Position numbers and translations under genes: made by a program. A stretch of 64,000 nt of DNA, from the NCBI GenBank assembly GCA_010093605.1, contig MU004187.1, positions 1,248,018 through 1,312,017 on the forward strand. The letters are read 5' to 3'. This DNA comes from Lophium mytilinum (Eukaryota). Of the stretch, positions 20,331 through 29,277 are shown one piece after another. The notes beneath the pieces are model-generated. The model was not told the origin of the DNA, ran no database searches, and saw only the letters and a program-made list of their open reading frames with translations. Each line of letters begins with the position of its first letter. Within the stretch, counting starts at the first letter, position 1.

Positions 20331-20945
20331 ATGGCCGCCCGTTTGCAGCTCTTCGTGTCTCTCTCGTCGCCATTTGCACGCAAAGCCCGCATTGCCGTGT
20401 CGGCTCTGCGACTCGCCGCCGAAATCGACGTCCACGTCGTCAATCCCTGGACCGATACCGGCCTGCGGTCAATGAACCCGCTGTCCAAGGTGCCGACTCT
20501 CGTGCGTGCCGACGGCACCGCGCTCTATGACTCCCGTGTCATCGTCGAGTATCTCGAGTCCCTCTCCGCCCACCCGCTGCTACTCCCACGTGAGCCCGGC
20601 GAGCAACGCTGGCGGAATCTGCGTTTGCAGGCTATGGCCGACGACGCCTGCTCTGCTGCCGGGCGTCTCTATGCCGCTGAGCGGGATCTGAGGGGCCTCG
20701 ATGCCTTGCAGGCCGGGCGGGAGCGGTTGAGTGCTGCCGTGTTCTCCACACTAGATGCCCTCGAGAACGAGACACTCAGTGTCGAGCAGTGGCAACTAGG
20801 AGACATGTGTGCTGCCATCCTGCCCGGCTATTGCGTCTTCCGTTTCCCTGAACGCGATTGGAGAGAGGGTAGACCCAACCTTGCCAAGTTTGTAGAAGGC
20901 ATGGAGAGCTTAGCAGTGTTTCGGGAAAACCCTCATCAAGGATAG
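20331..20945 (+). CDS. Glutathione S-transferase, bacterial YibF-like type; intronless, 204 aa
   Basis: SSPFARKARI, NPLSKVPTL, LYDSRVIVEYLE N-terminal GST motifs; C-terminal FRFPERDWREGRPNL. Confidence 0.88.
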   Translation: MAARLQLFVSLSSPFARKARIAVSALRLAAEIDVHVVNPWTDTGLRSMNPLSKVPTLVRADGTALYDSRVIVEYLESLSAHPLLLPREPGEQRWRNLRLQAMADDACSAAGRLYAAERDLRGLDALQAGRERLSAAVFSTLDALENETLSVEQWQLGDMCAAILPGYCVFRFPERDWREGRPNLAKFVEGMESLAVFRENPHQG

Positions 20946-21244
20946 CTACCATGTATGTACCTCGCATCGAAATATACGTAGGCTGTACAATCTGTCTGGC
21001 TGAGCGGAATTTCGGGAAAACTCTTATCCAGAATAGCTGCTATGCACATATGTACCCACATCCAAATATAGGTTGTACTATTCGCAACTTAAATGTCTCC
21101 GGTAGACTTGTTATGCCAGACATCAGCACACTCTGCTCACCTAAGAACCATGAACAGTCTTCGACCATACGAAATCGTATCATACATCATCAAAAGCCCC
21201 CAACCCATCAGAAAAGCCCCACCTCATTAACCACTCCATCAACT

Positions 21245-22739
21245 TCATGTCCGATGCACACTCTCCTCATCACCATTGGACCGCGCCTCAAACGCCCTCT
21301 CCACCAGGATCCCTTTCGACGGCACTGTGTTCATGGCTTCCCACGTCTTCAGCGGTAGATGCTCTATACTCGTTCTTTGCACTATAGTATCCCTATGACT
21401 CGAACATCAGCTTGAGCATCTCGTTACAAGTTATGCAATCTTGCTTACATCCCATATGAGGACGTCGAAGAGTACATCCCCTCATGGGACGATGGACTCT
21501 TCCTACTACCATCATCGCTGATGATATATCCGGACCGGCTTCGTCCACTACTTCCAGACCTGGAACCTTTAAAGCTTGGGATGAGCGGGCGCAGCATTGG
21601 CAAGCATGCGCCGATGATCTGGAGTGCAGCTTGGATCATAGGCCAGTACACGATGGGAGTGAGGAAGTAGGATACGTCAGGCTCGAGCTCGAGTTCTGTA
21701 CGGCGCATAAGTTGCTGAGATCGAGCACTTGCTTTTGAGACTTACGGTGGCCGACGAAGTTGAAGATGATCATCTTGGCGCAACTTGCTGCTACAGCCCT
21801 GTGATACATCAGCGTTAAGTATGAAAAATCTTTGGAACGGCTCACATGACTCCTAGCAGGAAGATGCAACAGACTGCTATCTTTTGCTTCACTGGTAGGT
21901 GCAACTTCCATACTATCATGGGCGACGTCAGTTCAGAGTATCCAGAAGAGAGCTGCCAAAGTCATACTTAGAGGAAGAGGCACTATCAGGATCAGCGCAT
22001 CAAGCACCAGATCGGAATATACTTGCGACAAGTACATCGGGACGGCATCGATACAGTGTTTGCGGTCAAGGTTTATGCCTGGCGCATTGATGAAGGAATG
22101 TGAGATTGGGACACATTCGAGCAGGTTCGCAAAGAAGTAACCAATCATCCACATCGAAACGAGAGCGATGAGCGCCCAATTGATGATGTTGAAGGTGCGT
22201 CCTCGGAATATCCTGTTGTAGAATAGCAAGACGGAGATCTTTGCCGGGCCGATAGCAAAGATCTGGCTGAGCTGCCCTGCCCAGAGCATCTAGCGTCGAT
22301 GAGTATGAATGTATGTATGTAACGTCAACACATACCTTCAAGAACCAAATATACCGTGGATCATCGAATACAGGACGATTATGATCGAACTTCATATGTT
22401 GGCCCTGATTCCCCAGAGCCGTACCTGAGACGAATTAGCGCCGTCGAAGCCATTATACGAGACGCGGGAAGGGAATAGGTACTTACCTATGACCATGAAC
22501 ACGCCCGTAAGGTAAGTGAAGAACTGCAAACCCCAGTAAGCAGCCATCTAAATCAAGGTGTCTTGATTGACTCAACTCACCAGCGCCACCATGATCAGCC
22601 AATCGTCCCACAACAGGGCGTTCTTCTTCAGCCTCCGAGCATAGAACCTCAGCGCCGTAAAGAACGTCGGCAGCAGAGACAGCACCGCTGCGAGCGCATA
22701 CTGCTGGCCAGGTGACTGAGCCGGCGTCGAGAAAGCCAT
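21245..22739 (-). CDS. PTH11-like (fungal rhodopsin-domain) integral membrane protein without CFEM
   Basis: LRFYAR...DDWLI, AKISVLLFYNRIF, LECVPIS, D.LILIVPLP, IIGACLPMLRPL. The last intron (GTAAGC...CATAG) gives an in-frame tail ...KGILVERAFEARS...HRT*. Confidence 0.85.
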
Positions 22740-27734: not shown

Positions 27735-28904
27735 ATTCCTATTCTTCCATCTACTGTAACGATGGATCTCGACCGAAAGCTTGGACGGGCCTAAGCGAGC
27801 GGTGACACAGTTGGCTCATAGAACTCTGATATATGCGGTGGCTAGGAAATCCAGCACATATTGCTGCCTAGATGGAAATGGCGGATAAGTCATGCTCTTA
27901 AGAGGCCTAGCTAGAAATAGAAATCATTGATGCCATACCCCGCATCCACACAACAGAGGATTGCATTGCGATACGATACCTAGTATTAGGGCTTCGCTCT
28001 GTGCCGTGTTCCGTTGGTGTCCTGGCTGTTGAACCTCGGAAGCCGACCTGGGATTTGTTGTTGCAGCAAGGGATTACTCGATGTTGCACTGGGTATGCAC
28101 GTCGGTCCAGATGGTGCCGCGGCGGGCCAACCCTCCCTCCCTCCCGCTGCCGCAGTTTCAAGTGGGTCATCCCAACATCTGGCTTTCGTCTTTTTGATCA
28201 GGCGCCGTCTTCCCTGAATTTGGACTCCTGGATGAATTTGGTTTCAAATATCTGGAAGTAAAAGCTTTCCGAGTAATGGTATGTGCCACATACAACTCTG
28301 AACGAGCGCGCGATTTACGCGCTAAAGAGTTATGACACATCCCACCCCAACGAGTGAATGGCCATGTCTTAAGTTCCGGGTATGTCCGTTTCCCATGGGA
28401 CCGCACCGGCATTTCAAGGGCATATGTAGGATGCAGGTAGGTAGCAGTATGATGCCGTCCACCAGCTCTCCCTGCGCCTGTTAGATTAATCGAGGGCCTG
28501 CCGTACGACGCGTCCACTGGGCAGGCGTAATGTCAGCCCAGCCCTTCATGCCATCATGGTAAGTTCTCGATCGCTTCGACAGCCTTTCCTAAGGAGAACG
28601 CGTAAGTAGGGTTCCACAGGAGAGCTGCCGAATGGCGATCAGCGGGCTCTTTGGGCGGTCAAGGGAAAATAGAAATAAAGGTCCCGAATTCTAGATACAA
28701 CGTTGTTATGCGCGGGCGGATCGAGTCTGAGTACTTAGGTGACTGAAGGGCCACAAAGCAGATGACAAGCCGCCTCCTCGAGCTCGAATCGATACAAGAA
28801 CTCGACATATTGCTTCTGAAAACGTATTGTTTTCATTTCTGGACAGCCGATTTGATTTGATCCGTTAGTCAATGCGAGAGACAGCCGAGACAAGTCGATA
28901 CATT

Positions 28905-29277
28905 ATGCGCCTCAGCTTGTACATCATTCCACTTGTGGTCTTTCTCAGTGCTGCCCTGGCCTTTCCCACTCCAGAAGGTAATCTCTCGCACTATTCAGCG
29001 GTTGTTTTGAGACTGTGGGCTAATCATATCGAGAGGCTCTGCGACTGTTGACGCGGACGAGAATGTTGGAAACAGCTGGCACGAGAGAAACATCGCCAAC
29101 AAAGTGTCCCGCGCCAAAGTCGATGCCGATGAGGCAGTGGGCAATAGCTGGCACGAACAAGATATCGGAAACAGAGTCTCCCGCGCCGAACTCGACGCCG
29201 ACGAGCAAGTGGGGAACAGTTGGCACGAACGTAACCCTGCAAACACAATCGAAGTGTCGACAGGCCGCAGAGCTTGA
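28905..29277 (+). CDS. Secreted multi-core repeat peptide, candidate RiPP precursor (104 aa; exons 28905-28977 and 29036-29277)
   Basis: MRLSLYIIPLVVFLSAALA-FP signal peptide; 58-nt intron GTAATC...GCTAAT...GAG; three 72-nt repeats encoding (V/L)DADE(N/A/Q)VGNSWHE; 3.4 kb from the nearer DUF3328 gene. Confidence 0.8.
29047..29244 (+). repeat. 72-bp tandem repeat x ~3 (precursor core repeats)
   Basis: TGGCACGA recurs at 29077, 29149 and 29221 (period exactly 72); core differences are mostly synonymous. Confidence 0.9.

Follow-up and report, generated by a model that had tools for sequence, protein, structure and literature searches.

The present analysis concerns a block of genes at positions 20331-29277 of a 64-kb stretch of the genome of Lophium mytilinum (Dothideomycetes; contig MU004187.1); the whole stretch is referred to as the window, and positions are counted from its first letter. 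An earlier note, made from the DNA letters, had read this block as a candidate gene cluster for a peptide that is made on the ribosome and modified after translation (RiPP) of the dikaritin type, and every element that it listed was found at the coordinates given there. Assignment of stop-to-stop reading frames to Pfam families resulted in the following gene order between 19 and 31 kb: phosphoribosyl pyrophosphate (PRPP) synthetase (minus strand), glutathione S-transferase (GST, plus), a membrane protein of family PF20684 (minus), the two DUF3328/UstYa genes UstYa1 (plus) and UstYa2 (minus), aldehyde dehydrogenase (ALDH, plus), a small precursor gene and an adaptor-complex mu subunit (minus). 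Gene models were assembled from GT..AG introns and continuity of the reading frame.

Precursor gene and UstYa pair of the Lophium locus

The precursor gene (28905..29277, plus strand) consists of two exons (28905-28977 and 29036-29277) that are separated by a phase-1 GT..AG intron of 58 nt (28978-29035). Its spliced model encodes 104 amino acids and is identical, letter for letter, to the deposited protein P0001 (BU16DRAFT_538121). Exon 1 provides a signal-peptide-like N-terminus of 24 codons plus one base, which by inspection is hydrophobic and ends in A-L-A ahead of FPTPE. Exon 2 encodes three repeats of 24 amino acids with the core units DADENVGNSWHE (29050..29085), DADEAVGNSWHE (29122..29157) and DADEQVGNSWHE (29194..29229), all on the plus strand. 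Tandem Repeats Finder described the repeat with a period of 72 nt, 2.6 copies, 72% matches and a score of 204. The spliced model, the deposited protein and the repeat analysis thus confirm the earlier proposal of a signal-peptide precursor with three near-identical cores, and the combination of signal peptide and repeats that is expected of a dikaritin precursor is present. Six precursors compared with Pfam matched no family at its cut-off.

Alignment of the three units revealed a marked difference between core and spacer. Among the twelve codons of the core (D-A-D-E-x-V-G-N-S-W-H-E), eight differed by synonymous changes only, one (the x position) by a non-synonymous change and three were fixed, whereas the twelve codons of the spacer comprised none with synonymous changes only, eleven with non-synonymous changes and one that was fixed. 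The DNA of the repeats has therefore drifted while the core peptide was held, and the core of the Lophium precursor is under purifying selection. The only close orthologue of the precursor is that of Mytilinidion resinicola (79-82% identity in local alignments), and VGNSW is kept in six of six units of the two species, all three units of M. resinicola included.

UstYa1 (23617..24430, plus strand) has four exons (23617-23809, 23861-23959, 24006-24085 and 24131-24430), and its model of 223 residues equals the deposited protein P0003 letter for letter. UstYa2 (24490..25482, minus strand) codes for 240 residues in six exons (25482-25284, 25223-25110, 25057-24939, 24884-24800, 24742-24685 and 24637-24490). 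The two genes are convergent, their stop codons at 24430 and 24490 being 60 bases apart, and they lie two and three genes away from the precursor, so that the nearby DUF3328 gene of a dikaritin locus is present as well. A twin HxxHC motif is the defining mark of the UstYa/DUF3328 family. It is intact in both proteins, as the earlier note had claimed, with HQLHC (residue 119) and HIRHC (residue 162) in UstYa1 and with HELHC (residue 139) and HIDHC (residue 171) in UstYa2, the last of these being interrupted by an intron. The PF11807 profile recognised the whole UstYa1 protein with 85.8 bits at a cut-off of 25 (63.7 bits for the last exon alone), whereas UstYa2 was matched only through four exon pieces of 23.3-27.5 bits each, the exons being scored singly. 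A metagenomic homologue of UstYa2 (L017) reached 121-132 bits on the same profile and has the intron that splits HIDHC at the same position.

UstYa1 and UstYa2 share 25% identity, and each has one N-terminal hydrophobic membrane helix. The residues of the HxxHC motifs of UstYa1 are invariant or nearly so across 53 homologues. An AlphaFold model of UstYa1 made with this 53-sequence alignment (mean predicted local distance difference test score, pLDDT, 74.6) places a helix at residues 29-55. Foldseek returned no match to the model at E<=0.001, the fold being uninformative, and UstYa1 has no sequence relative in the PDB.

A family of tryptophan-anchored precursors and its linkage to UstYa genes

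A profile built from nine precursors was used for database searches. The first search returned 47 proteins (E<=10) among 5.8 billion, and the second 47 representatives (E<=0.001) among 1.84 billion, of which at least P0137 and P0142 are unrelated repeat proteins. The unit D-A-D-[DE]-x-[V/I]-x-[N/Y]-[S/A]-W was present in 72 of the 75 pooled proteins (P0142 counted), with one to five copies per protein and 173 in total. Counted back from the Trp residue, the 72 distinct Trp-anchored units have Ala at -8 in 69 cases, Asp or Glu at -6 in 70, Val or Ile at -4 in 70, Asn or Tyr at -2 in 71 and Ser or Ala at -1 in all 72; Asp at -9 and -7 is partly fixed by the selection of the units. The stretch of D-A residues is longer in L017 than in L010 and resembles a spacer. 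VRNSW, VAYAW, VHNSW, VVYTW and VKNSW are the commonest five-residue ends, and VGNSW is confined to Lophium and Mytilinidion among the family proteins. Twenty-one units end at most four residues before the C-terminus of the protein, from which we infer that the C-terminal edge of the mature peptide lies just past Trp.

Members of the family occur in Dothideomycetes, Sordariomycetes, Leotiomycetes, Lecanoromycetes and in Aspergillus and thus in five classes of Pezizomycotina, the class having been looked up for five species. The genera are Bimuria and Kalmusia among the Dothideomycetes, Xylaria, Nemania, Hypoxylon, Truncatella and Apiospora among the Sordariomycetes, Hymenoscyphus among the Leotiomycetes, the lichen-forming or allied Icmadophila, Squamulea, Pleopsidium, Stictis and Circinaria, and Aspergillus with sections Flavi and Nigri. 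The suggestion of a new minimal class in the earlier note has therefore to be given up: the VGNSW locus is a lineage-specific variant of a widespread precursor family. The cores of the characterised clusters are represented by YAIG and similar strings, and the statement that the Lophium core matches none of them was supported.

Linkage of precursor and UstYa genes was followed in 80 metagenome contig loci that had been fetched by alignment of the UstYa1 clade and that collapse to 48 distinct groups. The Lophium precursor detected, by tblastn, repeat peptides of the same unit next to UstYa genes in these loci. A six-frame search with the pattern [DE][AP]D[DEA].[VIL]...W over 784 kb (the 80 loci and the window) gave matches exclusively at precursor sites, namely in 16 loci and at the three units of the window; a second pattern added L074 and L076, again with zero stray matches. 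The precursor unit is hence present in 18 of 80 loci, corresponding to seven of the 48 groups, and a convergent UstYa1-like/UstYa2-like pair was found in all seven. Five groups have the precursor 0.8-1.4 kb upstream of UstYa1; in the window and the other two groups it follows 3-4.4 kb downstream of the pair, so that the linkage persists despite rearranged gene order and orientation. Most other contigs with a UstYa1-like gene are too short to be judged (L003, L008 and L018, for example, have 1.1-2.0 kb). The precursor genes of L002, L010, L012, L014 and L043 have one layout in common, which consists of a signal-peptide exon of 19-27 codons plus a base G, a phase-1 intron and a core exon. This identical exon/intron layout in all compared precursor genes identifies them as homologous genes and not as look-alikes. 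The three-core precursor of L014 (1765-2100, minus strand) apparently has a GC donor in its signal-peptide intron, and an intron apparently splits its second core between VKNS and WSAR.

In named genomes the linkage was read from the order of accessions. UstYa1 and precursor are three genes apart in L. mytilinum (KAF2496999 and KAF2497002), as in the window, and the same spacing is found in M. resinicola (KAF2816479 and KAF2816482), which says little because the two species are closely related. The UstYa1 homologue and the precursor have consecutive accessions in Aspergillus caelatus (KAE8368604 and KAE8368605), Aspergillus pseudocaelatus (KAE8418450 and KAE8418451) and Aspergillus tubingensis (GLA74326 and GLA74325). 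Protein P0125 of a metagenome-assembled genome of Stictis urceolata (194 amino acids) runs from the C-terminal part of a UstYa2-like protein into a precursor with four VHNSW cores; this fused gene call is an annotation error, yet it documents the adjacency of the two genes. The earlier note would have been refuted, on its own terms, had homologues of the precursor lacked DUF3328 neighbours in other genomes. This is not the case in the seven metagenome groups, in M. resinicola and in the three Aspergillus species.

A tree of UstYa proteins was calculated from the 104 C-terminal alignment columns of 55 sequences, comprising 32 of the 48 group representatives (those with a clean match) and 23 named proteins; L012, L033 and L080 are not part of it. 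A branch with 98/90 support separates the UstYa genes beside Trp-type precursors from two genes beside Tyr-type repeats, and eight of eleven UstYa genes linked to Trp-type precursors form one clade (100/98 support). The enzyme tree thus appears to track the type of the precursor, which we regard as supportive only, the alignment being short and many forks open. The Tyr-type precursors, which are of the Kex2 type with Tyr cores, adjoin distant UstYa pairs at L028:280-471 (minus strand), L029:8498-8689 (minus), L033:~1300-1594 (minus), L080:13997-14300 (plus) and L032:~5960-6178 (minus). Their cores are (S)DDAVAYPDSYKR in at least six copies, EVAYPESYKR in about nine, EDAIAYPDSYKR in six and VIYPDYRR in three. 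A D-D-A-V-A-Y stretch is common to these proteins and to the Trp-type precursors with DADDAVAYAW, which suggests, at the level of sequence, that both types descend from one ancestor. A distant UstYa gene has, at a distance of about 1 kb, a repeat peptide with five units of approximately TDWYTDSASG or TNWYADSASG at L069:~1300-1686 and L071:~8600-8968 (both minus strand) and may represent a further precursor type.

These data bear on the possibility that the peptide is secreted as an unmodified repeat peptide (pheromone-like, effector-like or of the Kex2 type) and that the UstYa genes act on another substrate. For 78% of the Kex2-processed repeat proteins in the survey of Umemura 2020 no DUF3328 neighbour is reported, and the survey counts many linear peptides among them (PMC7329392); a feature search of a protein atlas with P0001 placed an alpha-factor-like cluster at rank 7 with a score of 0.79, which is a lead only as all matches scored below 0.9. 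We nevertheless consider an unmodified peptide distinctly unlikely in view of the linkage in every precursor-bearing group and in five named genomes despite rearranged gene order, of the D-A-D-[DE]...V...W unit that is kept over five fungal classes and of an enzyme tree that follows the type of the precursor.

Neighbouring genes and extent of the module

The remaining members of the block that had been named in the earlier note, an ALDH, a PTH11-like membrane protein and a GST, were all identified by Pfam at the coordinates given there. The seven-helix membrane protein (Fung_rhodopsin, PF20684, PTH11-like; 21445..22739, minus strand) is encoded by several exons with approximate splicing. PF20684 matched three exon pieces, as reading frames, that span 21445-22829 on the minus strand, and the central exon scored 76.4 bits. 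A PTH11-type receptor is expected to have a CFEM domain ahead of the seven-helix domain; no CFEM match was obtained in the scanned exon pieces, the model of the N-terminal exon being approximate. In the window and in five of the seven precursor-bearing groups the UstYa pair has a PF20684 gene at a distance of up to about 4 kb, the side and the orientation of which vary. The two groups without it have little flanking sequence (1.7 and 3.5 kb in L014, 3.3 kb in total in L076). The PF20684 protein is the one recurring neighbour that is not a UstYa protein.

The ALDH (26009..27734, plus strand; 487 amino acids) sits between UstYa2 and the precursor. It has exons at 26009-26484, 26536-26929, 27026-27474 and 27590-27734, and all four match the Aldedh profile (positions 5-461). 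It is conserved in place only in the group L002/4/5/6/7, which shares the whole Lophium gene order with about 82% identity in segments, and it is either a lineage-specific accessory or a mere neighbour. The GST (20331..20945, plus strand; 204 amino acids, Pfam GST_N_2/GST_N_3) is encoded by a single exon and had no tblastn match among the 80 related loci; by this comparison it is probably outside the module. O-methyltransferase, cytochrome P450, major facilitator superfamily (MFS) and GMC oxidoreductase genes are variable neighbours in the related loci.

The six-gene extent of the cluster in the earlier note is therefore overstated, since the GST occurs in none of the 80 loci and the ALDH in the closest group only. 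Judged by sequence comparison, the conserved module is formed by the precursor, UstYa1, UstYa2 and the PF20684 protein. At L009:8381-10423 a PF20684 gene with 67% identity to that of the window stands beside a partial gene of the UstYa1 clade, with neither UstYa2 nor precursor within 10 kb on each side; here the module may have decayed or been rearranged.

ALDH and GST are typical enzymes of small-molecule metabolism, and DUF3328 proteins are described from the cyclochlorotine, astin and atpenin pathways (PMC12048977). Both UstYa proteins could accordingly tailor a small non-peptide metabolite together with ALDH and GST while the repeat peptide is a bystander. Pfam detected no non-ribosomal peptide synthetase (NRPS), polyketide synthase (PKS), terpene synthase or other scaffold gene in the 64-kb window (frames of >=110 aa outside the block). 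The distribution of the genes also argues against it: the UstYa pair is constantly accompanied by the precursor, and the GST and ALDH are absent from the related loci or restricted to one group, respectively. We judge a bystander peptide highly improbable.

The block is bracketed by the PRPP synthetase (ribose-phosphate pyrophosphokinase, Pfam Pribosyltran_N/Pribosyl_synth) and by the adaptor mu subunit (Pfam Adap_comp_sub; the type of adaptor complex, given as AP-1 in the earlier note, is not distinguishable by Pfam), the two flanks that the earlier note had named. The window is an ordinary piece of fungal chromosome of 64 kb with a GC content of about 0.5, and its remaining genes are of housekeeping type (RNA polymerase large subunit, VIT1, WSC, kinase, choline kinase, phosphodiesterase and others). 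Outside the block 97 further frames, only those of >=110 aa, were compared with Pfam. At 20-30 kb and in these 97 frames Pfam recognised no domain of a tyrosinase, transporter, transcription factor, NRPS or PKS; a Mem_trans gene was located outside the block at 47.8-49.1 kb. A class-I methyltransferase (32932-33810) is likewise outside the block past the adaptor-mu gene, where it forms, together with an APH-type phosphotransferase, the minus-strand segment 31712-33810 directly behind that gene. O-methyltransferases are present inside two related loci, L012 and L043. Two long open frames on the minus strand of the window (38834-42154 with 1107 aa and 15236-17332 with 699 aa) had no Pfam match at E<=1e-5. 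The G+C content rises to 0.64-0.65 at 58001-60000, compared to about 0.5 elsewhere, and the GC skew changes its sign there.

Proposed function and comparison with known systems

In many fungi of distant relationship this peptide family recurs next to the same two enzymes. The product is therefore very likely a Trp-based relative of the ustiloxin-type peptides, and the Lophium locus is best regarded as a UstYa-dependent (dikaritin-type) RiPP cluster. We would put the probability of this assignment at roughly three in four; the anatomy of the locus and the recurrent linkage of precursor and UstYa genes support the RiPP reading of the earlier note.

A possible course of the biosynthesis is as follows. 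The 104-aa precursor presumably enters the endoplasmic reticulum and the secretory pathway by means of its signal peptide. There the membrane-anchored, lumen-facing UstYa1 and UstYa2, two distant paralogues, would recognise the acidic D-A-D-[DE] stretch and oxidatively modify the adjacent x-V-G-N-S-W segment; the stretch could act as a recognition element or as a spacer that is trimmed off. The likeliest reaction would be formation of a macrocycle in which the side chain of the invariant Trp is joined to a residue upstream of it, probably to the beta-carbon of Val or Ile at the near-invariant position -4. A Trp-Val/Ile link appears likeliest by parallel with known relatives, in which the links are Tyr-Ile, Phe-Leu and Ile-Tyr. 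General secretory proteases may then release up to three peptides that contain VGNSW(HE), and the PF20684 protein, as part of the module, could serve as exporter, immunity factor or receptor.

Several observations weigh against this interpretation. DUF3328 proteins are described to act in non-ribosomal and polyketide pathways as well (PMC12048977). In groups L009 and L050/L053 the UstYa1-clade gene is flanked on either side by 10 kb that contain neither a UstYa2 partner nor a recognisable precursor, and the independence of the metagenome groups from each other is uncertain. In Hypoxylon argillaceum the sole UstYa homologue that was compared (P0028) is a member of a distant clade and no neighbour of the precursor, which is uninformative. 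Val is found at -3 instead of -4 in L074 and L076; this weakens a fixed Val(-4)-Trp link, and a residue other than Val(-4) may be the one that is joined. Within the Lophium block Pfam detected no peptidase, transporter, regulator or tyrosinase, the absence of tyrosinase, transporter and transcription factor having been noted before. In the 12 residues after each of the three Lophium units there is no [KR]R, as the Kex2 sites of a dikaritin precursor would require; the sole RR of the protein is near its C-terminus, and the R of the other units is replaced by Q in unit 2.

The last two findings could also mean that Lophium has only a remnant, decaying or silent, that has lost its dibasic sites and yields no product, a cluster-specific regulator, peptidase and exporter being missing from the Pfam assignments. 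A dibasic site follows at least one unit in 37 of the 72 family proteins and no unit in the other 35; lack of the site is therefore a trait of the family and no sign of decay. All reading frames and splice sites of the Lophium genes are intact, the core codons vary almost solely synonymously among the repeats, and the Mytilinidion orthologue keeps architecture and gene spacing. A remnant is for these reasons unlikely. As defined by a signal peptide and repeats bounded by KR or RR, Kex2-processed repeat proteins (KEPs) do not include the Lophium protein but do include its Aspergillus, Hymenoscyphus and VAYAW-type relatives.

The dikaritin-type assignment is best judged by comparison with characterised systems. 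DUF3328/UstYa enzymes are known to cyclise the cores of repeat precursors in ustiloxins, phomopsins, asperipin-2a, victorin and epichloecyclins (PMC9233826, PMC7329392), the known cross-links connecting a Tyr or Phe side chain with an aliphatic residue of the secreted precursor (PMC9233826). The ustiloxin system of Aspergillus flavus and Ustilaginoidea virens (UstA, UstYa and UstYb) resembles the Lophium locus in its signal-peptide repeat precursor and in two different twin-HxxHC DUF3328 proteins that are thought to cooperate in cyclisation (PMC9233826, PMC7329392). The ustiloxin core has an N-terminal Tyr that is linked to an internal Ile, whereas the Lophium core lacks Tyr and Phe and has its invariant Trp at the C-terminal side. 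In addition, ustiloxin clusters feature Kex2-flanked cores and several tailoring genes, a tyrosinase and a methyltransferase among them, but neither Kex2 sites nor a tyrosinase were found in the Lophium copy. Asperipin-2a (AprA/AprY) is likewise made by a minimal UstYa-type cluster without tyrosinase, which was discovered by searching for repeat precursors beside UstYa homologues (PMC9233826, PMC12048977). A single DUF3328 enzyme is reported for it (PMC7329392), and two cross-links start from Tyr side chains, in contrast to the Trp core and the fixed pair of distant paralogues seen here. In victorin (Leu...Phe) and in the epichloecyclins (N-terminal Ile to internal Tyr) the aliphatic residue is N-terminal to the aromatic one, which matches the V/I...W order of the present family (PMC9233826). 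Their aromatic partner is Phe or Tyr and not Trp, their precursors have Kex2 sites and their accessory genes are different. Trp-based links do occur among the plant burpitides. These are formed by copper-dependent BURP-domain cyclases, an unrelated protein family of another kingdom, and provide a functional analogy only, that is, oxidative side-chain cross-linking of ribosomal peptides beside a recognition sequence (PMC12186524); no homology is claimed.

The survey of Umemura 2020 found 1758 of 7878 Kex2-processed precursors near a DUF3328 gene, which was on average 3.09 genes away (PMC7329392), a general signature that is shared by the Lophium precursor, which lies three genes from UstYa1. 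The survey demands Kex2 sites (PMC7329392), whereas the Lophium protein and about half of the Trp-core family are without them. One Trp-containing type, P-3, with seven proteins from five genera is highlighted there (PMC7329392). The criteria of Ding 2016, as quoted in PMC12048977, name tyrosinase, methyltransferase, transporter or peptidase genes, and functional clusters without some of these are described. By Pfam, the Lophium block does not contain these accessory genes; it has the core of a dikaritin locus, namely DUF3328 genes close to a precursor with signal peptide and repeats, and is devoid of Kex2 sites, of a tyrosinase and of a transporter or peptidase.

Mining for DUF3328 genes next to repeat precursors is routine (PMC7329392, PMC9632046, PMC12048977). 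This kind of cluster is therefore already known, and the Lophium locus is dikaritin-like and not a new class. The strings VGNSW, VRNSW, VKNSW, AYPDSY, AYPESY and VAYAW occurred in no fungal peptide paper among the full texts searched. In the open literature searched, subscription journals being outside its scope, we found no characterised Trp-type UstYa family and no paper on this locus. Neither the fixed enzyme pair of the family nor its single-core or Kex2-free members nor the linked PF20684 gene were found there, the lists of precursors in Nagano 2016 and Ding 2016 being outside its scope; the Aspergillus members may already be catalogued, without a product, in such sources. A review of 2022 covers the characterised UstYa-type peptides ustiloxins, phomopsins, asperipins, victorin and epichloecyclins, all of which are cross-linked via Tyr or Phe (PMC9233826). 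A more far-reaching proposal, which we consider doubtful as a whole and put forward tentatively, is that the D-A-D-[DE]-x-V-x-x-x-W peptides would be the first Trp-anchored UstYa products. An obligate UstYa1/UstYa2 pair would join the beta-carbon of Val or Ile to the Trp indole in a macrocycle, the family would be ancient and Pezizomycotina-wide with the PF20684 protein as dedicated receptor or exporter, and the module would represent a signalling or defence unit instead of a lineage-specific toxin cluster.

A family with an invariant Trp that extends over five fungal classes and is accompanied by a constant enzyme pair would extend the chemistry of the poorly understood UstYa oxidases, for which a precursor and two enzymes constitute a compact test system. 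Pipelines that require Kex2 sites and repeats will miss members of the family because about half of them are without dibasic sites and some have a single core. The recurrent PF20684 membrane protein, finally, provides a new lead on the export or sensing of UstYa-type peptides.

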